Positions 25,216 through 61,321 of a stretch of DNA of 64,000 nt are shown piece after piece. The stretch is from Alphaproteobacteria bacterium (GTDB lineage: Bacteria > Pseudomonadota > Alphaproteobacteria > UBA1280 > UBA6503): assembly GCA_021774615.1 (NCBI GenBank), contig JAJFIW010000015.1, positions 490-64,489 of the forward strand. Reading direction: 5' to 3'. Every line of letters starts with the position of its first letter. Position 1 is the first letter of the stretch. Position numbers and translations under genes: made by a program. Below the pieces are notes generated by a model, which worked only from the letters and a program-made list of their open reading frames with translations, was not told the origin of the DNA and did no database searches.

Positions 25216-25320
25216 TCATTCTGCTTGGTGCGTATTGACAAACCTAATTATTAACACTATCTGTATGGCTAATATTCATTTTTCTTTCTCTTTTCATTCT
25301 TTCTCTTTAGGAGATACACA

Positions 25321-25632
25321 ATGCTTACTATTACCCAAGTTCTAATTGCTGTGCCAATTGCAGCACTTATTATGTACTTAATATACAACAGCACCAACTG
25401 GTTCCATATAAAGTCATGGGAAAAGAAGCTTTATAGCAAAAAGTCAATTGCAGTAAAAATTTTTAGTAATAAGGCCATAATTCTGTATTCCATCAAAGAT
25501 GGTTTAATCTTGGAGTACCAAGAGTGCAGTAAATACGGTATTTCCAAGACAGAAAAAACAAAAACTTTTCCCCATTCACAAGAAGATGAAGCTTTAGATA
25601 CATTCTACCAATGGGTTGTTGAATATTTATGA
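25321..25632 (+). CDS. Member 1 of the novel small-protein family (N-terminal TM anchor)
   Basis: Core NKAIILYSI..G ... QWVVEYL aligns with eight other ORFs. Shine-Dalgarno taggagatacaca. Confidence 0.5.
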   Translation: MLTITQVLIAVPIAALIMYLIYNSTNWFHIKSWEKKLYSKKSIAVKIFSNKAIILYSIKDGLILEYQECSKYGISKTEKTKTFPHSQEDEALDTFYQWVVEYL

Positions 25633-25650
25633 ACCTACATTACCGATTAA

Positions 25651-25678
25651 ACCCCTGCCATACGGCAGGGTGTTTTTT
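25651..25678 (+). terminator. Terminator hairpin ccctgcc-atacg-ggcaggg plus T-run
   Basis: Seen in the sequence. A near-identical hairpin recurs at 26516. Confidence 0.55.
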
Positions 25679-25779
25679 GTTTTGCCCCCTATATTCATTG
25701 ACAAACAACACTAAAATATACAAATTGGTAGTATATTTTTGTATTTATCTTCTTTTCTTATCTTTTTTAGGGTTAACCT

Positions 25780-26145
25780 ATGCCTAATCGTGAAAATATT
25801 GTATCGCAATGGGTTAAAGCTCTCCCATCTGATGATTTTAAGAGCCGGAAAATTGTAGCCGATAATGCAGTTCAATTATCTGTTATACAGCATAATCATA
25901 ATTATATGCTCCATGGCTATAGAAAATACTACAGAGTATCGCATTTTGTATGTGGTCAGGATGGTAAAACTATCAATGTAAAATCTAAAGTATTATTTAA
26001 GGCTACCAAAGCTAGCGCACTGTATTGGGAATGGTCAAAATCTATCATGGATAAAACAGGCCGAGTTGATGGCAGTATGTTTAAACATGAAAAAGCCAAG
26101 GTTATAATTATTTCTATAGATACTGACTTGATAAAAGAATATTAG
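25780..26145 (+). CDS. Member 2 of the novel small-protein family (no TM)
   Basis: DNAVQLSVIQ ... FVCGQDGKTINVKSKVLF ... WEWSKSIMDKTGRVDGSMF matches the family core, including the C-terminal R-IDGS-F extension. Confidence 0.5.
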   Translation: MPNRENIVSQWVKALPSDDFKSRKIVADNAVQLSVIQHNHNYMLHGYRKYYRVSHFVCGQDGKTINVKSKVLFKATKASALYWEWSKSIMDKTGRVDGSMFKHEKAKVIIISIDTDLIKEY

Positions 26146-26209
26146 CCCCCACAATTAACTTTACGTTAGTTTTTAATACATCTTTTTTACCTTTCTATAA
26201 GGAATTATC

Positions 26210-26494
26210 ATGAGTAATCCAACAAACAACTGCCAACAGGCAGTAAATGAAGAAGCCGTAAACCGGTGGGAACAACACCTAAGGGGTCTAAAAGACTCCT
26301 CCTTCCTCAAGATAAAAGGAAGAACTGCCATTAGGCAGGTAGTTAAAGACAATAGTAGAAAGACTATATTCTACCTTTATCACATAACTTGTGATGAAAA
26401 CGGAGTATCCAAAGTTGAAGAAATGAACACCTCCTTCAACAGGGAAGAAGCAACCACAAAAATGTGGGAGTGGTGCAGTCTTTACACAAAATAA
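26210..26494 (+). CDS. Member 3 of the novel small-protein family (short form)
   Basis: TAIRQVV ... ITCDENGVSKV ... MWEWCSLY matches the family core. Confidence 0.45.
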   Translation: MSNPTNNCQQAVNEEAVNRWEQHLRGLKDSSFLKIKGRTAIRQVVKDNSRKTIFYLYHITCDENGVSKVEEMNTSFNREEATTKMWEWCSLYTK

Positions 26495-26515
26495 CCCATT
26501 GTGCCATAAACGATT

Positions 26516-26546
26516 AACCCCTGCATACGCAGGGGTTATCTATTTT
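26516..26546 (+). terminator. Terminator hairpin aacccctg-catacg-caggggtt (duplicate of the 25651 hairpin motif)
   Basis: Seen in the sequence. Confidence 0.5.
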
Positions 26547-26648
26547 CTGCCACCCACTTGACATCTACCACAAGAAAGAATACACATTATCTACTGTATA
26601 TATCTTTGTTCTATTTTTCCCACTACACCACCTATTTGGAGGTAATAA

Positions 26649-26984
26649 ATGTTAGACATAGCATACATTGTTATAATATCTGTTATATCGCTAATACTTA
26701 TAATTAACCTGTATAAGAAACATAAGTACAAAAAGGAATTTGAGTACAAAATACGTGAACAATCACCAAATACTGTTAAAATTAGGATAAAAGGCAACAA
26801 CGCTGTTATCCTCTCAATACCTGAGGTAAACAGCTTTAGAAACCCACCAGAAAAGATGGCACTTAACATTGTAACTAATATAGAGGGGAACTTAGTATAT
26901 AATAATTTCCTATACTGGGTAAGTGGCACAGGTGGTATAAATGCAAACTATCGCTTTTGGGAAGCTTGTAGAGCATACCTTTAG
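26649..26984 (+). CDS. Member 4 of the novel small-protein family (N-terminal TM anchor)
   Basis: GNNAVILSI ... FLYWVSG ... FWEACRAYL matches the family core. Shine-Dalgarno ggaggtaataa. Confidence 0.45.
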   Translation: MLDIAYIVIISVISLILIINLYKKHKYKKEFEYKIREQSPNTVKIRIKGNNAVILSIPEVNSFRNPPEKMALNIVTNIEGNLVYNNFLYWVSGTGGINANYRFWEACRAYL

Positions 26985-27106: not shown

Positions 27107-27217
27107 ATGATTGCTACCGCGATTTTTTTATCAGTAACTTTGGCCTTCTCGGCCTACCTTTACAAGAATGATAAGTTGCAGAATGCAATGCTTCATTCAC
27201 CAAGCCGCCGCCGATAA
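27107..27217 (+). CDS. Possible 36-aa small membrane peptide
   Basis: Strong Shine-Dalgarno ttcaggagatcatc-ATG. One predicted TM helix (MIATAIFLSVTLAFSAYLY). Followed by the 27244 hairpin. Short, so confidence is low. Confidence 0.25.
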   Translation: MIATAIFLSVTLAFSAYLYKNDKLQNAMLHSPSRRR

Positions 27218-27243: not shown

Positions 27244-27271
27244 GAAAGCCCTGTCAGATGACAGGGCTTTC
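27244..27271. terminator. Hairpin gaaagccctgtc-agat-gacagggctttc, the terminator at the 3' end of pnp (and of the plus-strand small ORF)
   Basis: 12-bp perfect stem. Seen in the sequence. Confidence 0.5.
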
Positions 27272-49243: not shown

Positions 49244-49508
49244 GAATACGCCTCTTATAATAATTTAACTTAAGACTTTCACGGTCTTAAATTGCACTAA
49301 GCTCCGCTTAAACTGCGGTAAACCCGCAGTTAGACTTCGCTAGTGGGGCACAAAACAGTTTGTGCCCATAGTAGTTTAACCATGCAAGTGCAAAGTTAAA
49401 CTACTATATTCTAAAAAAACCTTATGTTATGTAACCCTATTATGCAGAAAAATCAACTCCCAACAAGAAAGCCCCCACCTTGAATGGTGAGGGTTCTCAT
49501 GAATCGAT

Positions 49509-49898
49509 CTAATAAGAGCTTAATGGTTCTATATTTTTAGGGCACATATTTTTATAATTTCTGTCTGTGACACAAGATTCTAGGTTCATATAATCCTTAA
49601 CTAACGAATTAAACTCAGCCAAAGGATCCTTGTGCACATACTGCTTCTTAATTATAAAAACACCACCCCAAGGTTTAACAAAAACCCAAACTAATGCAAA
49701 AAGGCCATTATCCATCTTTTTTATAAAAACTGCATTATTTTTATAAATATGATATTTGAATATGCCATCAATAACACCAACTTCATTAGCGCACCTAAGA
49801 AGATATGCAGTGAGCTGGTGTTTACGGTATTGGTATTTTGCAAAACAAATTGCACTGACACTTATTATAATAAGCACACTTAATGCTATCTCGAACAT
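49509..49898 (-). CDS. Member P1 of the novel small-protein family (divergent, TM-anchored)
   Basis: NNAVFIKKMDNG ... EFNSLVKDYMNL aligns with the family core. Confidence 0.4.
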   Translation of the reverse strand: MFEIALSVLIIISVSAICFAKYQYRKHQLTAYLLRCANEVGVIDGIFKYHIYKNNAVFIKKMDNGLFALVWVFVKPWGGVFIIKKQYVHKDPLAEFNSLVKDYMNLESCVTDRNYKNMCPKNIEPLSSY

Positions 49899-49994
49899 AG
49901 ATTTTCACCCCAAAAGTAGAGTTAAGAAAAAGAAAAGAAAGGCTACAGAATAAACCATTTATATGACTTTTTTAATGACATAGTCAAGCTATAA

Positions 49995-50030
49995 ACTACT
50001 AAAGCCCCTTTTAAAGGGGGCTTTAGTAGT
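49995..50030. repeat. 14-bp perfect inverted repeat (actactaaagcccc / ggggctttagtagt), terminator-like
   Basis: Seen in the sequence downstream of P2. Confidence 0.5.
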
Positions 50031-50035
50031 TGTCG

Positions 50036-50434
50036 TTATTCAATATAGATAGCATTTGTATATTTGCTACCATCAATCCGGTTTTCTCTAGACAGATAAA
50101 GATCCACCCATCTATTAAACTCTGATTCTGCGAAAATTTCCTCATCAGCAAGAAAAGTAGCTCGCTCAACAACGACTGTTTTGCCGCAAGCATTCATAAA
50201 TGCTCTGTGTAGTTTATAAGAATCATCGTCCTTCTTTATAAGGTACACAATGTTCCCATTAACAATATTAAAGTAGGATATTCTTTCATTTTCTCCGAAA
50301 GATTTTGCCCAATTAAAGTGTAAAAACAAACGTTTAGCTTTTTTATAAAGAAAACGTAAAAACATAAATAGTACATACAACCCTAAAGGATACAAAATAA
50401 GGGGAATATATAATAAAAAATCGTTAGAGAACAT
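50036..50434 (-). CDS. Member P2 of the novel small-protein family (TM-anchored)
   Basis: GNIVYLIKK ... FMNACGKTVVVERATF ... FNRWVDLYLSRENRIDGSKY. Confidence 0.5.
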   Translation of the reverse strand: MFSNDFLLYIPLILYPLGLYVLFMFLRFLYKKAKRLFLHFNWAKSFGENERISYFNIVNGNIVYLIKKDDDSYKLHRAFMNACGKTVVVERATFLADEEIFAESEFNRWVDLYLSRENRIDGSKYTNAIYIE

Positions 50435-50500
50435 AAGCCCTCCTTATAGTTAGTCTACTAGCAAGACTCGTGTGGAAATAATGGTATTGCCAGCATAAAT

Positions 50501-50788
50501 CTAATAAAAGAAAACATCTTTATCAAACGTACTACCATCAATAATGCGGTTCGGGTCTAGAAACCTTTTGCACCATGCTATAAACGAGGCGTTGGCATTA
50601 TCTGTATCAGTAAAAGAAGTTCTGCCTGCGACAACTGTTTTGCCTTTGGCATTCATGAATAGTCGGCGCATTACATATAAGCCGCAACTAAGTTGTTCGA
50701 GAATAATTGCATTATTCTCAGACATTGCTAGCCCGATTTGGGTTGCATTTAATTCTGCTTTGGTTGGTGTCCAATTAATAACGGCCAT
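50501..50788 (-). CDS. Member P3 of the novel small-protein family (no TM, start at internal ATG)
   Basis: NNAIILEQLSCG ... FMNAKGKTVVAGRTSF ... FIAWCKRFLDPNRIIDGSTF. Start at MAVINW with a GGAGG 8 nt upstream. Confidence 0.5.
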   Translation of the reverse strand: MAVINWTPTKAELNATQIGLAMSENNAIILEQLSCGLYVMRRLFMNAKGKTVVAGRTSFTDTDNANASFIAWCKRFLDPNRIIDGSTFDKDVFFY

Positions 50789-50880
50789 GATAGTAGCCTC
50801 CATAAATGTGGAAATGAAAAGGGAAGAATAGAAAAACAATCCCTAATTATACAAGATTTTGGTATATAAATACAACCATA

Positions 50881-50923
50881 AATAATGAAAGCTCCTACCA
50901 ACAAGGTAGGAGCTTTCATTATT
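50881..50923. repeat. 19-bp perfect inverted repeat (aataatgaaagctcctacc / ggtaggagctttcattatt)
   Basis: Seen in the sequence, directly downstream of P4. Confidence 0.55.
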
Positions 50924-50928
50924 TCGCT

Positions 50929-51246
50929 TTATGGGATAAGTGATACCCCCTTAAATAAAGAACCATCCCTAATTTTTGTTAGGGTCAAATATTCTTTAAC
51001 CCATCGTTCAAAAAGAGTTACTGCAAGTGATTGTTTATTTGGATTAAACCCAGCAACTTTAACATTAACTTGCTGGCCATAAGCATTTGCAAAAACCCAA
51101 CGTAGAAGTATTCTTCCACTAGGTAGTTGCTCTAGAACAATGGCGTTGTCTTTTAAGACTTTATGTTTAATGAGCAGGCGGTCTCCCCTTTTAGGGAATT
51201 GGTGTGCAATTATAATTGCGCGTTTAACTCTATTTATATTTAACAT
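50929..51246 (-). CDS. Member P4 of the novel small-protein family (no TM)
   Basis: DNAIVLEQLPSGR ... FANAYGQQVNVKVAGF ... FERWVKEYLTLTKIRDGSLF. Confidence 0.5.
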   Translation of the reverse strand: MLNINRVKRAIIIAHQFPKRGDRLLIKHKVLKDNAIVLEQLPSGRILLRWVFANAYGQQVNVKVAGFNPNKQSLAVTLFERWVKEYLTLTKIRDGSLFKGVSLIP

Positions 51247-51332
51247 ATAAAAAAATCCATAAAAAGTAACAATAAGATTACATAAATAAATATCTACACT
51301 ATGTAGGGATACTAATAGTAGCTATCAACCCC

Positions 51333-51380
51333 CTAGATGCAATAAAAGCCCCCGTGCATGGGGGCTTTTATTGCATCTAG
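51333..51380. repeat. 21-bp perfect inverted repeat (ctagatgcaataaaagccccc-gtgcat-gggggcttttattgcatctag)
   Basis: Seen in the sequence, directly downstream of P5 and overlapping the -35 region of P4. Confidence 0.6.
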
Positions 51381-51389
51381 GCACTAAGC

Positions 51390-51869
51390 CTAACTATTGT
51401 CGTTAATGTAAAACACCTTTTCAGGGTTATACACATCATAATAATATCTACTGCCATCAATTAATTGTGATGGACGCATATATTTTTCGCACCATTCTCT
51501 ATGCATTTCTCTGGCAGCAGCTTCATTAGCAGCAGAAAAATTTTCTGTTGATGTCGTTACAGTTGTGCCAAAACTATTCATTATTACTCGGCGCAAGCGG
51601 AAAGGGCCAACTGCTACACCAATGCTAGTGTTTGCATTTTGCCTTAAGCCAAGGTCTTCCAGAATAATGGCATTACCTTGGGAAAGGTTACTGGCCATTA
51701 CGGTAGCACCTTCTTCTGAAGTTGCTGGCATCCAAGAGGACTCCATCTCCGCACGCTGGCGATTTTCTCCGCCTTTAGTAAGTAGGCTAAGAAGGTTAAA
51801 TTTAAATACAATAAATGCTCCAATAGCAAGCACTACGAATACAGGGATAGGAATACCTAAGATATCCAT
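51390..51869 (-). CDS. Member P5 of the novel small-protein family (TM-anchored, longest)
   Basis: GNAIILEDLG ... IMNSFGTTVTTSTENF ... HREWCEKYMRPSQLIDGSRY. Confidence 0.5.
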   Translation of the reverse strand: MDILGIPIPVFVVLAIGAFIVFKFNLLSLLTKGGENRQRAEMESSWMPATSEEGATVMASNLSQGNAIILEDLGLRQNANTSIGVAVGPFRLRRVIMNSFGTTVTTSTENFSAANEAAAREMHREWCEKYMRPSQLIDGSRYYYDVYNPEKVFYINDNS

Positions 51870-51964
51870 GATTTTCTCCTATAAAGGATGTGGGGGAAAA
51901 GAAAAGAAGATTACGTAAGTAATCGTTATTTATGTTTACTGGAGAAAAACAGCCTTGTCAAATT

Positions 51965-53593: not shown

Positions 53594-56500
53594 ATGCTTC
53601 CACAAAAATCTGATTTTATAATAGACGCTGTTTATAACCATCGTGTAAAAGACATCATAGCTAATACCCCTAAAAAAAAGATACCTAGCAAACTATTTAA
53701 TACATTTGCAGAGATTTTCTTTTCTGGTACGCCAACACATGAGCTAAAAAACCATAGCGACAGCAATTTATTAGAATCATTACAACAGAGCTTTAAATTT
53801 CTAGATGCTCCGCTAAAACAGTCGGAACTAAAGCTAGCTGTTTTTAACCCTAATTTTACACGCCATAGCGTCATAATGACGAACTTACGTGACCAACCGT
53901 TTTTAATTGATAGCCTATGGCTTGAGTTAAACCGCAGAGGTATAGAGGTTCATCATACATTCCACCCTACTCTTGCAGTTGTTCGCGATAGTAAAGGCCA
54001 TGTTACAGAACTATCAAGAAGTGACAATAAAACTACAGCTATAGACCAACGCGAAGCTTTCATTTTTATCGAGTTTGACCGCCAGTCTGAAGAAGATATT
54101 GCCGAAATACACGATGCTATAGCAAATACACTTAAAATTGCTCGCCAAGTAGTAAATGATTTCCCCGCAATAACTGGCAAAATGGATAATGTCATCCAAA
54201 CTCTGGGCCACGCAAAAAGCCACGACATGGTTGAAGATACATTAGAAAATGTTGCTTTCCTAGAATGGCTACTAAATGACCACTTTGTTTTCTTAGGTTA
54301 CCGCCAGTACGACTTAATACATAAAAAAGATAAGCCATTTATTAAAGCTAAAGATGGCTCTTCTTTAGGTATTTTAAAAGGGGCGAAAGAGTCTTCAGTT
54401 ACCGAAGAAACACCTTTAGAGAATATTTCTCCTAATTTGCAACGTTATATGTCTTCTTCAAAAGCACTAACTATTGCAAAGTCTATTACTAAGGCAAATA
54501 TCCATCGTTATGTAGATATGGACTACATTGGGGTTAAAGAGTTTGATGACAAAGGTAGGGTTATCCGTGAGCATAGGTTCTTAGGGTTATTTACATCTCG
54601 TGCTTATACCGATAACATTCATAATATTCCTCTAATACGGCAAAAAATTAACGCAATTATTGCGTCAGAACCAGCCAGTAAAATAGGTGGCTACAATCAT
54701 CGTGCTTTAATCAATATTCTTGCAACATACCCACGCGATGAATTATTCCAGATATCAATGTCTGACTTACACCGCATTACAATGGGTATTTTACACCTTA
54801 AAGAGCGCCAACAGACTAAACTATTTGTTCGCCATAGCGCCGACGAACGGCTTATTACAGCAATGGTTTTCCTACCACGAGACCAATTAACCAGGGTTAA
54901 CCGTAACCGTATATCGGCTATTTTATGCCAGTCTTATAACGCTGAGGATATTACCTATAATATCCATGTAAGTAACTCTGCATTGGCACGTGTATTTTTT
55001 ATGATTCGTACCGAAAAAAACACCTCACAAACTACTTCTGATGATGACACTGAAAAGCTTATCGTCGAGCTAACTCGCTCATGGGAAGATGGATTACGCC
55101 GTAAAATGTGTGAACTATGGGGCGAGCATAAAGGCCTTAATACTTTCAAAAAATACAACCTTTCTTTCCAAGCCGGCTACCAAGAGCGTACTAATACAAA
55201 TATTGCAATAGATGATATCCAGAACATAGAAGGCCTTATAAAATCTGGTAAAGACAATAAACTTAGTATTTCTCTGCACCAAACAAATGATGATGGGCGT
55301 GCAAGCTTGCGTATTTACCATAAGGAGACCCCTATCCATTTATCTAGTATTATGCCAATCCTCGAAAAAATGGGGCTACGGGTAATCGAAGAGCACCCGA
55401 GCAATGTATCAACTACAGACGGCGTATTTTGGATTCATGATTTTGTGGTTTACCCTCCAGAAGGTGCTAGCCATTCATTAATAGAAAACTCTACAACCGA
55501 GCAACTTACCCAAGCAATAGAGCTTGCTTGGTATGGTAAAATTACTGTTGATAGCCTAAACAAGCTAATTACTAAAGGCAACTTAGGGGCTGAAGCTATT
55601 ATTGTGTTGCGCTCTTATATAGCTTATTTACAGCAAGTTGGCAGCAAATATTCGGCAGAATATATCCGTGAAACTTTAATTAAACACAGCACTATTACAG
55701 GCCGCTTGTGGAAATTATTCGATAGCAGGTTTAATAATGACTACGACAAAAAATCCGCACAAAAAATGGAAGATTCAGCCATAAAAAGCATTTATGCTGG
55801 CTTAAAAGAAGTATCCGTTTTAGATGAAGACATAATTATCCGTAAACTTGTGGGGATAATTAAAGCCACCAAGCGTACTAATGCATTTGCACGCACAGAC
55901 ATCACAGAGCCATTAGCATTTAAAATATTTAGCGCTGATGTGCCAGACCTACCAAAACCAGCACCACTATTTGAAATTTTTGTTTACCATGTAGCGGTTG
56001 AAGGCATCCACCTTCGTGGTGGCAAGGTTGCCCGTGGTGGCCTACGCTGGTCCGACAGGCCTGCTGACTTTAGAACCGAAATTCTAGGACTAATGAAAAC
56101 CCAGATGACTAAAAATGCGGTTATTGTGCCAGTTGGCTCAAAAGGCGGCTTTGTACTGAAAAAATCCCCTTGCGATCTTAAAGACTTAGGGACCTGCGAC
56201 CGTGATGCATTAAAACAAGCAGTAGTTGATGCTTACAAAATATTTATCCGCAGTTTACTATCAGTTACCGATAATATTAAGAACGACAAAGTTGTTCCAC
56301 CTAAGAATGTTCGCCGCCATGACGACGACGACCCATATTTTGTTGTTGCAGCCGATAAAGGTACTGCCACATTCTCTGACCTAGCTAATAGTCTTTCGCA
56401 AGAATCAGGCTTCTGGCTAGGTGATGCATTTGCATCTGGTGGTTCAAACGGGTATGACCATAAAAAAATGGGGATTACTGCTCGTGGTGCTTGGGATAGC

Positions 56501-58453
56501 GTTAAACGCCATTTCAGAGAAGCTGGCAAAGACATCCAGAAAGAAGAATTCACCTGTTTTGCCGTAGGCGACATGGCTGGTGATGTATTTGGTAATGGCA
56601 TGCTACTATCTGACAAAACCTTACTGGTAGCTGCATTTAACCATATGCATATTTTTATTGACCCTAACCCAAACTCTGCTGAAAGCTTCAAGGAAAGAAA
56701 ACGTTTATTTGTAGACGTAGCAGGCTGGGATAAATATAACACCAGCAAAATATCTGCAGGTGGCGGGGTCTATAGCCGTAACGACAAAGAAATAACCCTG
56801 TCCACTCAAGCACGTAAACTACTAGGGCTACGTAAAAACAAACTACCCCCTAACGAAGTTATTACCGCAATTATGACCATGAAAGCAGAGTTATTCTGGA
56901 ATGGTGGTATTGGAACTTTTATTAAAGCAAGCGATGAAACCCATACCGAAGTAAGCGACCGCAGCAATGACGAAGTACGGATTAATTCTTCACAATTTAA
57001 CGCCAAAGTTATTGGTGAAGGCGGCAACTTAGGTATGACCCAAAAAGCCCGCATTGACATGGCACAACGTGGCGTACTACTAAATACCGATGCTGTTGAT
57101 AACTCGGCTGGTGTGGATTGCTCTGACCATGAGGTAAACATCAAAATACTACTAGACCGAGCAATTACTGATGGCAAACTATCAGCGCAACAACGCAATA
57201 AACTTTTACTCGACATGACCGATGACGTTGCAAACCTTGTTTTGCAAGACAACTACCTCCAAACCCAGCTTATTAGCTTTGAAAACCAAATGCGGGCTTT
57301 CTCAGCTGCTGACGCCCATTTGCGGATGATGCGTAACTTCGAAAAAGCAGGAATGCTTGACAGAGCAATAGAGTACCTCCCTAGCGACGACGAAATGGAC
57401 GATAGAATAAAGAATGGCAAAGGGCTAACTCGCCCTGAGTTATCTGTTCTAATGGCATACGGCAAAATGGACTTATACAATAATTTACTAAAATCGTCTT
57501 TGCCCGACGAAAAATGCTTAGAGGAATACTTAATAGAATATTTCCCACCACAACTAAGGACTAAGTTTGCCGCAGAAATAAAGAAACACCCTCTGCGCCG
57601 TGAAATTATCGCGACAAGTATCGCAAACGAAGTTATTAACCGTATGGGGCTAAGCTTTATTTATCGCTTGCGCGATGAAACTGGCTACCAAGACGACGTT
57701 ATTGCCCGAGCATTCATCATAACTAAGCGCTTATACGGGCTTGATGATGAGTGGCAAAGAATAGAAGAGCTAGATGGCAAAGTACCTGCTTTCTCTCAAC
57801 TTAAAATGCTAGACTCTATACGCAGGCTGTCTGAGCATGTTTGCCTATGGTTCTTGCGTGACGGGCATGCATCGCTAGACATCTCTGACAGGTACCATGT
57901 TTTTAATAAAATAGTTAATAACCTTATTAAAATATTACCAGCTAACATGACCGAAGAAATGCAAAAGCAACATAGTTACCGAGCAAAACTATGGCAAAAA
58001 GATGGGCTAGACCATAAAACAGCCGATCATATTGCATTAGCTTCAGCGTTATATGCGATCCAAGACATTGCACAAACAATTATTAATACCAAGCAAGACG
58101 AGAAAACCATTATGGGCCTACACTTCCGTATTGGTGAAGAACTTAGCATGGAGCACCTATACCAAAAGGCTCGTTCTATGCCTAATGCTAATTATTGGCA
58201 AAGGGTTGCTAGCCAATCAATTATCGATAGCCTTTATAGCCACCAGAAACAAGCAACCTTGCAAGCTATTACCTTAAAAAATGGTAAGGCTGCAAAATCT
58301 AGTGCACAAGACATAATTAAAACTTGGGCAGATAACAAGAAAGAAACCCTAACAATTTACAACCGCATGGTCGCAGAGCTAGACAGCCAAACTACAGTTG
58401 ATCATGCAATGCTAAATGTAGCGCTAGGGCATTTAAAGTCTATTACCTCTTAG
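53594..58453 (+). CDS. NAD-specific glutamate dehydrogenase, large (about 180 kDa) bacterial type
   Basis: 1619 aa. The catalytic region contains [46 protein letters not shown], which is typical of the Bac_GDH family. Confidence 0.85.
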   Translation: [1619 protein letters not shown]

Positions 58454-59995: not shown

Positions 59996-61321
59996 TTATA
60001 GTACCATATGTTGTTCTTTTACAGCATTCTTTTGTGCATACATAGCTTGGTCGGCTGCGTTTAGGATACTTTCTGCTTTAAGGTCAGCGTCAGAGCCATC
60101 AAACACTTGCACCCCAATGCTTGCTCGCACATCCAGTAAGTTATCTTTTACTGGTACTTTTAACGCCGCAATCGCAGATCTAACTTCGTCTGCTTTGCGT
60201 TCTGCCATTTCTTCGTCTGCTTCTTCGAGGATTGCGGCAAACTCGTCGCCACCAATCCTAGCTAATATGTCTGTACTGCGTAAAATACCCGACAAGCTAT
60301 TTACCACAGCTTTTAACACAGCGTCCCCTGCTTTATGACCAAAGGTATCGTTTACCATTTTAAAGTCATCCATATCTATAAACAACACAGCCCCTTTACG
60401 GCAATAACGTTGGGCATTATTAATTGCATCTCGTAAGCGGCGGTCAAAGACAAGGCGGTTATTTGCACCTGTTAAGTGGTCTTGGGTAGCAAGGCGCATT
60501 AATTCTGTCTCGTTTGCTTTACGATTAGTAATGTCTAGCGTTTGGATAATTGCATAGCGCATATCATCACGGCCATAATGGGCAAGCGACATGCTCATCG
60601 CTACCCAAATAATATTACCTGCGCTATTAACTATTCTAATTTCAATCCCGTCATAGACACGCTCGCCTTCAAAAACTTTTTCTAGAGCATGCTCAAACAT
60701 TGCCCTATCTTCTAGGTGGATTAGGCTTGCAAAGCTATTACCCTGCAGCTGTGCGATAGGTTTATCAATAGTTCTAGCAAGCGAGCGGTTAACCATTGCT
60801 GGTTTATGGCTGCTGTCAATAAAGCAAACCCCATATGGTGCATACTCAAAAGATGCTGCAAAACGATTGCGCAGTTCTCTGTTTTCTTGCTGCATTTTAA
60901 CAGTTTTAGTTAACAACTTAACCACAACTACCATAGCCTGCACCTTGCCATTACGGCATAAAGGCTCGAGGCGTAGTTTAACTTGGTGGGTATTGCCGCC
61001 GACATCAAATTCAGTTCGTAGCGAGCGACATTGGGACTTGCCGCCAACCAAGCGCAGTAAAGGTTTAAACTTTTGCCATACACCTGCTGGCAACACTTGG
61101 CTAATTAGCCTGCCATTCATCTTTTTTTGTAATAGACCTACAACTGTGCGGTTAGAATTAATAACAATAAAGTCATCATTAGAGGCTGGCTTTAACACAA
61201 AAACACCATCAGAAACACTATCCATAACCATGGCGATAATAGACATTAAGTCACTGTCAAATGTGTCAGCAGTATTGACCAGATTTGTAGACATGTTTGG
61301 CATTATGGAGCTCCCGAACAA
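59996..61321 (-). CDS. PAS-domain sensor diguanylate cyclase (GGDEF)
   Basis: RIGGDEF active site, I-site RxxD context, and N-terminal PAS-like repeats. Confidence 0.8.
   Translation of the reverse strand: MFGSSIMPNMSTNLVNTADTFDSDLMSIIAMVMDSVSDGVFVLKPASNDDFIVINSNRTVVGLLQKKMNGRLISQVLPAGVWQKFKPLLRLVGGKSQCRSLRTEFDVGGNTHQVKLRLEPLCRNGKVQAMVVVVKLLTKTVKMQQENRELRNRFAASFEYAPYGVCFIDSSHKPAMVNRSLARTIDKPIAQLQGNSFASLIHLEDRAMFEHALEKVFEGERVYDGIEIRIVNSAGNIIWVAMSMSLAHYGRDDMRYAIIQTLDITNRKANETELMRLATQDHLTGANNRLVFDRRLRDAINNAQRYCRKGAVLFIDMDDFKMVNDTFGHKAGDAVLKAVVNSLSGILRSTDILARIGGDEFAAILEEADEEMAERKADEVRSAIAALKVPVKDNLLDVRASIGVQVFDGSDADLKAESILNAADQAMYAQKNAVKEQHMVL

Follow-up and report, generated by a model that had tools for sequence, protein, structure and literature searches.

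The 64,000-nucleotide stretch of DNA analysed here, hereafter the window, comes from an uncultured alphaproteobacterium (contig JAJFIW010000015.1 of assembly GCA_021774615.1) and carries two tandem arrays of small protein-coding genes that together make up one genuine paralogous family of nine members. Array 1 lies on the plus strand between rlmN and pnp and consists of four open reading frames (ORFs), designated A1 (25321-25632, 103 amino acids (aa)), A2 (25780-26145, 121 aa), A3 (26210-26494, 94 aa), and A4 (26649-26984, 111 aa), which were recovered with the same positions and lengths as in an earlier, sequence-only reading of this DNA. Array 2, located ~23 kb away, is composed of five minus-strand ORFs, B1 to B5, that span positions 49509-51869. 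The genes bordering array 1 were identified with NCBIfam equivalog models as RlmN (396 bits, cut-off 290) and polynucleotide phosphorylase (PNPase; 997 bits, cut-off 525), so that the flanks named in the earlier reading both stand above threshold, while those bordering array 2 score as MiaB (514 bits, cut-off 355), RimI (90.1 bits, cut-off 86.4), and TsaB (121.7 bits, cut-off 69.3).

The relationship among the nine ORFs, which the sequence-only reading had proposed, is borne out by pairwise comparison, leave-out profiles, and shuffling controls. Most members are linked pairwise in BLASTP searches, with E values of 5e-17 for B3 and B5, 2e-10 for B2 and B5, 5e-6 for A1 and B4, and 3e-5 for B1 and B4, followed by the weaker pairs A2-B5 (1e-4) and A1-A3 (0.007). 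Several of these values fall far below 0.01, though A4 reaches a best pairwise E value of only 0.27. Each of the nine ORFs is nevertheless detected by a profile made without that member, A4 being the weakest. When stripped of their transmembrane (TM) segments, A4, A3, B1, and A1 score 10.8, 17.5, 20.9, and 33.4 bits, respectively, and the members other than A3, A4, and B1 fall between 33 and 59 bits; for all nine, none of 500 shuffled versions of the same protein reaches the real score. A six-frame profile scan of the window returns exactly nine members (E ≤ 7e-26) and no tenth copy, the next best match having an E value of 0.46. Since the profile scores surpass every shuffle and the scan finds these nine and nothing else, the family is considered real. 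Membership is solid for eight members and probable for A4, which is backed also by its position in the array, its anchor, and its structural model. The shared core motif described in the earlier reading is visible in the alignments, where N-A-(I/V)-x-L, a turn glycine, a phenylalanine, W..YL, and R-(I/V)-D-G-S are the common elements, and no stretch of 7-10 columns is strongly conserved.

None of the resources searched offers a name for these proteins. Matches to Pfam are scattered, lie below the cut-offs (E values of 0.014-0.21), and differ from member to member; no NCBIfam or PADLOC family is matched by any member; and the PHROGs hits go to eight different unnamed families, with one member each. 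Among all PDB sequences, the family profile finds nothing better than an E value of 0.72, and tblastn searches of phage and plasmid collections return nothing. Structural searches with Foldseek against the PDB reach a best E value of 0.2, and those against BFVD a best value of 3.9e-3, to uncharacterised phage proteins. The family is thus undescribed and stands outside the curated resources searched, as the sequence-only reading had anticipated when it could place the proteins in no known domain.

Structural models were generated with AlphaFold2 for two members. B3, the first to be modelled, yielded a mean predicted local distance difference test (pLDDT) score of 85.4 and a predicted template modelling (pTM) score of 0.75, with antiparallel strands at residues 16-23, 26-32, 38-45, and 51-59, a helix at residues 62-76, and a poorly ordered tail. 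The A4 model (pLDDT 79.4) begins with a long N-terminal helix spanning residues 2-38 and then repeats the four strands of B3 and its C-terminal helix. These models support, with good confidence, an architecture in which an optional N-terminal TM helix precedes a domain of ~60-70 residues, predicted to form a four-stranded β-meander packed on an amphipathic C-terminal helix (β4-α). Conservation is concentrated in the N-A-(I/V)-x-L hairpin, the third-turn glycine, the phenylalanine after strand 4, and a helix face of the pattern A...F..W...Y-L. These positions, which are mainly hydrophobic, asparagine, or glycine, include no catalytic-looking set of residues in the alignments, and we take them to belong to the core and the turns. 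The domain may be extended by a C-terminal tail, R-(I/V)-D-G-S-x-(F/Y), with variants allowed at its first position, that six of the nine copies carry, A2 and B2-B5 in full and B1 in degenerate form, and that is absent from A1, A3, and A4; R-V-D-G also occurs in three proteins from other genomes, described below.

The hydrophobic N-terminal segment, scored here in 17-residue windows, is found in five of the nine proteins and is missing from the remaining four, and the assignment of such a segment to A1 and A4, with A2 and A3 lacking it, agrees with the earlier reading. Across the eight TM-bearing members (five from the window and three from relatives), the flank on the N-terminal side carries a net charge of 0 to -2, and the 15 residues that follow the segment carry +1 to +5. 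By the positive-inside rule, this distribution of charge makes it likely that the proteins insert in an N-out/C-in orientation, which would leave the domain on the cytoplasmic side. None of the N-termini resembles a signal peptide, and neither a lipobox cysteine nor an A-x-A site was found by eye after the hydrophobic segments. The surface or secreted location suggested in the sequence-only reading is thus not supported, in view of the N-termini, of charges that predict a cytoplasmic domain, and of the four proteins that have no hydrophobic segment.

Outside the window, the family is rare. An exhaustive HMMER profile scan of 1.84 billion representative proteins recovered the nine window proteins and three further small proteins, P0010 (146 aa), P0015 (132 aa), and P0020 (129 aa), together with ten long repeat proteins that match only the β-meander part of the profile. 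Word-indexed protein searches returned almost solely the window's own proteins, plus one close relative, and a RimI query for sister genomes returned only itself. Because the exhaustive scan shows only nine proteins from the source genome, nine is probably the full complement of its assembly. In the other genomes, the family genes (P0010, P0015/P0023, and P0020/P0025) are found singly or as a tandem pair that directly follows tsaB-rimI and precedes miaB-phoH or phoH alone, which is the position of array 2. One copy is present in the L082 lineage, and two tandem copies are present in the L086/L090 and L172 lineages, where the second tandem gene is also a family member (E values of 1.6e-19 and 3e-14); miaB is not adjacent to the family genes in L086 and L090. 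Proteins of these loci are 75% (MiaB), 75-81% (PhoH), and 37-42% (RimI) identical to those of the window genome. Profiles built solely from the other-genome proteins recover A2 and B2-B5, and A1 weakly; A2, at an E value of 1.4e-11, is the array 1 gene nearest to these homologues. The family is thus confined to a few related uncultured lineages, namely that of the window and three others. The comparison of synteny finds the array 2 gap occupied in all three of the latter and, since every external member lies there, the rimI-miaB gap is the ancestral home of the family.

In the relatives with two copies, two old subtypes are found in tandem (L086, 7553-8390; L090, 1091-1928; L172, 731-1551), with the type a and type b genes overlapping by 8 nucleotides (nt) in L086 and L090. 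Type a proteins lack a TM segment, are rich in arginine at the N-terminus, and show the C-terminal pattern YL....R..WW, and type b proteins have a TM segment and an R-V-D-G tail; the window copies are mostly b-like, and none has the type a C-terminus.

More distant loci were gathered with RlmN and MiaB as anchors, giving 80 rlmN and 80 miaB loci. No family member was found in the 80 rlmN loci or in the 80 more distant miaB loci (MiaB identity ≤ 57%), 34 of which have rimI upstream on the same strand. In the distant loci inspected, the space between rimI and miaB is taken by a Fur-family gene (PF01475, 135.6 bits), often accompanied by one for a PlsC-type acyltransferase, as seen among the metagenome-derived loci L091-L170 in L137 (6512-6919) and L132 (6113-6913). 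No Fur gene was found in the window or in the related loci examined. The nearest genome found is the metagenome-assembled genome UBA6503, whose RlmN is 78% identical and in which the order ETF-QO, rlmN, X, pnp is kept. X in UBA6503 is a single 354-aa HtpX-like M48 membrane protease (L002, 11230-12294; below NCBIfam cut-offs), so the rlmN-pnp gap is also a variable slot between conserved genes, and no family member occurs within 10 kb of this rlmN locus. Since this nearest genome has nothing equivalent to array 1 between rlmN and pnp, array 1 would represent a secondary colony of the family. The ORFs were also considered as fragments of the gene that fills this slot in UBA6503, and the idea was rejected, as a tblastn search of the protease against the window gave a best E value of 2.3 at an unrelated position.

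Constraint on the coding sequences could be measured in the L086/L090 pairs, the only orthologue pairs close enough for the purpose. The ratio of nonsynonymous to synonymous substitutions (dN/dS, NG86 method) is 0.15 for the type a gene and 0.08 for the type b gene, compared with 0.08 for rimI and 0.009 for phoH. The family is under purifying selection in these relatives, at about the level of RimI, which runs counter to the diversifying selection that the sequence-only reading had invoked. Window paralogs are 9-33% identical among themselves and 10-34% identical to the external proteins; as the two ranges coincide, the duplications are either old or were followed by fast divergence. A neighbour-joining tree of 13 proteins contains no informative grouping above 78% bootstrap. 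The arrays have a G+C content of 35-36%, against 40.8% for the window, and, because G+C at third codon positions (GC3) in the family genes falls in the span seen for neighbouring genes, a foreign origin is not clearly indicated.

The genes of both arrays are accompanied by recurring sequence signals. Eight of the nine genes are preceded, at -82 to -92, by a TTGACA hexamer or a one-mismatch variant of it, which resembles a σ70-type -35 promoter element; the background per site is 5%. In every related locus, the first gene likewise has TTGACA at -90 to -103, followed in three loci by CATACT 17-19 nt later. In array 1, the -35-like TTGACA of A1 (25235-25240, 86 nt before the ATG) lies within the 10-mer ATTGACAAAC (25234-25243), and that of A2 (25698-25703, 82 nt before the ATG) within a second copy of it (25697-25706). 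ATTGACAAAC occurs twice in the 64 kb, at 25234 and 25697, or 87 and 83 nt before the respective ATGs, against an expectation of 0.14, and the pairing of this 10-mer with the first two genes, remarked on in the earlier reading, is therefore unique to those sites. A3 has TTGATA (26128-26133, 82 nt before the ATG and within the 3′ end of A2), and A4 has TTGACA (26558-26563, 91 nt before the ATG). The claim that TTGACA precedes each gene of array 1 consequently stands for A1, A2, and A4, with A3 carrying the variant, and the claim that each has its own GGAG Shine-Dalgarno site stands for A1 (AGGAG) and A4 (GGAGG), the sites of A2 (TAGGG) and A3 (AAGGA) being partial.

The four array 1 genes differ in their composition of modules. 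A1, which has a CT-rich leader, encodes a TM segment at residues 2-18 and the β4-α domain, without the C-terminal tail, and is followed by a hairpin, CCCTGCCATACGGCAGGG, and then a T-run resembling an intrinsic terminator (25653-25679, plus strand). A2 encodes no TM segment and joins the domain to an R-V-D-G-S-M-F tail, and A3 is a divergent member with neither TM segment nor tail. A3 is followed by the terminator-like hairpin TAACCCCTGCATACGCAGGGGTTA and a T-rich tail (26515-26538, plus strand), homologous to the hairpin after A1; the CCCTGC..GCAGGG hairpin occurs in the window only at these two places, where 0.01 would be expected by chance, in agreement with the near-identical terminators described in the earlier reading. 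A4, with a TM segment at residues 4-20, the domain, and no tail, is the weakest member by sequence and has the same fold in its model. A 12-bp hairpin at 27244-27271, assigned to neither strand, marks the convergent end of array 1 and pnp. Between A4 and this shared hairpin lies a 36-aa plus-strand ORF, MIATAIFLSVTLAFSAYLYKNDKLQNAMLHSPSRRR (27107-27217), with an AGGAG site and a CT-rich leader; it encodes what looks like a TM anchor without a domain, and could be either the remnant of a fifth unit or a tiny membrane protein in its own right.

Array 2 is read on the minus strand, and B5 (51390-51869, 159 aa), which encodes a TM segment, a domain with an insertion, and an L-I-D-G-S-R-Y tail, directly follows rimI, as do the homologues in other genomes. 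Its -35-like TTGACA (51956-51961, 92 nt before the ATG) is located just past the rimI stop codon, where TTGACA is also found in L082, L086, L090, and L172, and a perfect 22-bp hairpin (51332-51381) follows the gene. B4 (50929-51246, 105 aa) has no TM segment, an I-R-D-G-S-L-F tail, a TTGATA at 51323-51328 (82 nt before the ATG), and a perfect 20-bp hairpin after it (50880-50924). B3 (50501-50788, 95 aa) is also without a TM segment, has an I-I-D-G-S-T-F tail, and lacks both a -35-like hexamer at the usual distance and a hairpin of its own; its start is most likely the ATG at 50788, with GGAGG 8 nt upstream, rather than the TTG at 50839 of the longest ORF, and from this ATG the N-terminus contains no hydrophobic segment. 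B2 (50036-50434, 132 aa) combines a TM segment, the domain, and an R-I-D-G-S-K-Y tail, with a TTGATA (50521-50526, 92 nt before the ATG) that falls within the 3′ end of B3 and a 15-17-bp hairpin downstream (49994-50031). B1 (49509-49898, 129 aa) has a TM segment and a domain with a degenerate tail, a TTGACT 89 nt before its ATG (49982-49987), and a terminator-like hairpin at 49472-49493.

The leaders, defined as the segments between putative promoter and ribosome-binding site and estimated from the hexamer position to be ~50-60 nt long, contain 71% C+T, where the value for 44 other window genes is 50% (p = 7e-5). The pyrimidine tract is kept in relatives whose loci have G+C contents of 48%, 53%, and 63%, and is also found 5′ of the internal second gene in L172. 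Nearly all family genes have such a leader, with a C+T content of ~70-80%, and in the relatives these segments were located at 682-767 in L082, at 7454-7552 in L086, and at 648-730 and 1124-1161 in L172. Its persistence suggests that the pyrimidine-rich leader is a selected cis-element, for example a translational enhancer or a binding site for a regulator. The feature is compositional and has no fixed motif; the 11-mer CTTCTTTTCTT, considered as a candidate leader motif, was dropped as non-specific, with ten one-mismatch matches in the window of which three are in leaders. When the leaders were folded, the pyrimidine tract paired with the Shine-Dalgarno sequence only weakly and inconsistently.

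Strong hairpins follow six of the nine genes (A1, A3, B1, B2, B4, and B5), and the stems after B2, B4, and B5 are perfect over 15-22 bp. No hairpin separates A2 from A3 or B3 from B2, and these two pairs may be co-transcribed. Most copies look like self-contained units consisting of promoter, leader, ribosome-binding site, gene, and terminator-like hairpin, and the family appears to have grown by the copying of whole units of promoter, leader, gene, and terminator, whose upstream and downstream signals are still recognisable though the coding sequences have diverged to 10-30% identity.

Taken together, these results favour, though by no means firmly, the interpretation that the nine genes belong to an undescribed family with an ancestral locus between rimI and miaB and that its members act as membrane-tethered, cytoplasm-facing binding adaptors or regulators. 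The statements of identity within this interpretation are held with high confidence, the topology is considered likely, and the function of a binding regulator, drawn from the architecture, is tentative. In the proposed mechanism, the TM helix would insert N-out/C-in and hold the domain at the cytoplasmic face of the inner membrane, and the anchorless paralogs would be soluble cytoplasmic versions. The domain would be a non-enzymatic binding module, as its conserved positions look like core and turn residues and form no catalytic set. At the membrane, a family protein might then bind one or more partners and link or regulate them, and the R-x-D-G-S tail could be a docking motif. Through duplication, paralogs would have arisen whose surfaces differ and which vary in whether they have the anchor and the tail; these probably differ in partner or location, and the conserved pyrimidine-rich leader probably controls translation. 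A bolder version is rather unlikely. It holds that the proteins are a new class of membrane-tethered small regulators, that the leader co-regulates nine autonomous genes at the post-transcriptional level, that their products form mixed oligomers or compete for one partner at the membrane, and that in this clade the set has taken the slot occupied by Fur in other lineages.

Several points weigh against this interpretation. The function is taken from the architecture alone, and the gene neighbourhood is uninformative because the genes appear to be separately transcribed. The AlphaFold2 models were driven by a shallow alignment of 13 sequences, and that of A4 partly presupposes membership of the family, while the topology was derived from the positive-inside rule rather than from a dedicated predictor or an experiment. 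A3, A4, and B1 are missed by the profiles built from other-genome proteins and are tied to the family through their in-genome paralogs. The promoters and leaders are putative and consist of sequence patterns; the interval of -82 to -92 behind the hexamer statistic was picked after inspection of the data, and a generic promoter scan of the array regions found sites no more numerous than in shuffled sequence. The timing, direction, and order of the duplications can be read neither from the identities nor from the tree.

Other explanations were weighed against the same body of evidence. The proteins could be orphan immunity or defence proteins, small inhibitors directed at competitor toxins or phage for which tandem duplication supplies specificities, as the sequence-only reading had in part suggested, and the tandem arrays of small, divergent paralogs (9-33% identity), some anchored and some soluble, expanded in one genome only, would fit such a role. 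This is nonetheless unlikely: the flanks checked are housekeeping genes, with no toxin, secretion-system, or mobile-element gene found nearby; homologues fill the same rimI-miaB/phoH gap in three other lineages, a conservation unlike that of immunity islands; and the dN/dS values of 0.08-0.15 are the same as that of rimI. Neither PADLOC nor the Pfam immunity families are matched, the phage and plasmid collections hold no relatives, and the fold matches are no better than those to many unrelated β-plus-helix proteins. The substrate of RlmN, MiaB, and TsaB alike is tRNA position 37. The proteins might be accessory factors that tether or modulate, at the membrane, the adjacent RNA-modification machinery, with enzymes for tRNA position 37 or for the ribosome (RlmN, MiaB, TsaB, and RimI), given that both arrays adjoin genes for radical-SAM RNA-modifying enzymes on the same strand (rlmN and miaB) and that the rimI-[family]-miaB/phoH position is kept across four lineages. 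This association is improbable, however, as the promoter-like sites of most genes and the hairpins after six of the nine make co-transcription with the neighbours unlikely and miaB is not adjacent in L086 and L090. In addition, the presence of unrelated genes in both gaps elsewhere, Fur and the acyltransferase between rimI and miaB in more distant genomes and the HtpX-like protease between rlmN and pnp in UBA6503, indicates that these gaps between operons behave as general-purpose landing sites.

An exported or surface location, in which the hydrophobic N-termini would be signal peptides or anchors placing the domain outside the cytoplasm, is very unlikely. Five of the nine proteins do begin with a hydrophobic segment, and the proteins are small and divergent, but the N-terminal flanks are neutral or acidic with the basic residues coming after the segment, the 17-residue scored segments exceed the 10-15 residues typical of a signal-peptide h-region, and neither the absence of lipobox or A-x-A sites nor the four window proteins and the type a proteins of relatives that have no hydrophobic segment fit with export. 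Hardly credible, finally, is the idea that the ORFs are non-functional debris, either decaying duplicates or fragments of a larger gene. The strong divergence of A3, A4, and B1, the lack of a tail in A1, A3, and A4, the anchor-only ORF after A4, and the AT-richness of the arrays might be read as decay. Every copy, however, encodes a complete domain with a start codon, most have a ribosome-binding site, and eight of nine have a promoter-like site; their sizes agree with those of homologues in other genomes, purifying selection was measured in the relatives, the models of B3 and A4 are confident, no similarity exists to the HtpX-like gene of UBA6503, and GC3 is in the range of the neighbours.

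If the family does consist of membrane-tethered binding adaptors or regulators, the closest functional analogy would be a connector of the PmrD type. PmrD of E. coli and Salmonella (PDB 4hn7) shares no sequence similarity with the family and, unlike it, is a soluble, single-copy, enterobacterial protein with more strands, which form a barrel; nor is any two-component system linked to the arrays. The WGR domain (PARP-1/PARP-3 WGR, PF05406) was likewise compared, and its Pfam model is not matched by the family at E ≤ 1. The turn motif is N-A-x-G in the family and W-G-R in the WGR domain, the conserved tryptophan of the family sits in the helix, and WGR domains occur without TM anchors in nucleic-acid-related multidomain proteins, whereas the family has an optional anchor. 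The β-sheet-plus-helix fold is also adopted by several small inhibitor or immunity proteins, TriTu (7zhm_D), AcrIIA13 (7eni_C), AcrID1 (6exp_A), and MmoD (6d7k_H), from which the family differs in having no toxin, CRISPR, or phage context, in its conserved housekeeping slot, and in its purifying selection.

Fur (PF01475) takes the same rimI-miaB position in many more distant genomes and is likewise small, at 135-160 aa. It is not homologous, since the Fur gene reaches 135.6 bits against PF01475 and the family matches nothing, and the architectures differ, with a TM anchor in the family; Fur was rejected as an explanation of the ORFs. The ten long repeat proteins of the exhaustive scan, among P0011-P0022 and from other metagenomes, contain four to six repeats of ~48 residues with the pattern ISAVALD..RVFIAHS..S.YYLYG.VCTI.GTTIT.GTDT, mostly without a Pfam match, and look like carriers of an undescribed β-propeller-type repeat unrelated to the family. 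The repeats match profile positions 44-91, the four-strand meander, with E values of 7e-6 to 9e-4. They were rejected as relatives, as the hhalign probability is 11%, the scores sum four to six repeats, and helix, anchor, and tail are missing; the likeness is treated as a generic β-meander pattern and not as homology.

Small proteins of uncultured bacteria are poorly annotated, and this family provides a clean example from outside the curated resources. Its fold prediction, ancestral locus, and purifying selection suffice for a new domain-of-unknown-function entry. Its mode of expansion is unusual, in that regulatory signals were seemingly copied with the gene and have outlasted the similarity of the coding sequences, and the leader, which is kept in a relative with a locus of 63% G+C, may be a translational control element. 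The value of these observations is descriptive, and the understanding of no major system is changed by them.

Three features in and beyond array 2 deserve mention in their own right. The B1 terminator and the start of miaB are separated by 222 nt (49244-49465, minus strand) that fold into four consecutive hairpins, with a minimum free energy of -70.7 kcal/mol (z = -5.0 against 200 shuffles), and the matching region in L082 is only ~110 nt long. This segment might act as a structured leader of miaB, encode a small RNA, or consist of palindromic repeats; Rfam matches nothing in either array, this segment included. Divergent from tsaB, a gene on the plus strand (53594-58453) encodes a 1619-aa NAD-specific glutamate dehydrogenase of the large bacterial type, and a PAS-GGDEF protein is encoded at 59996-61321.

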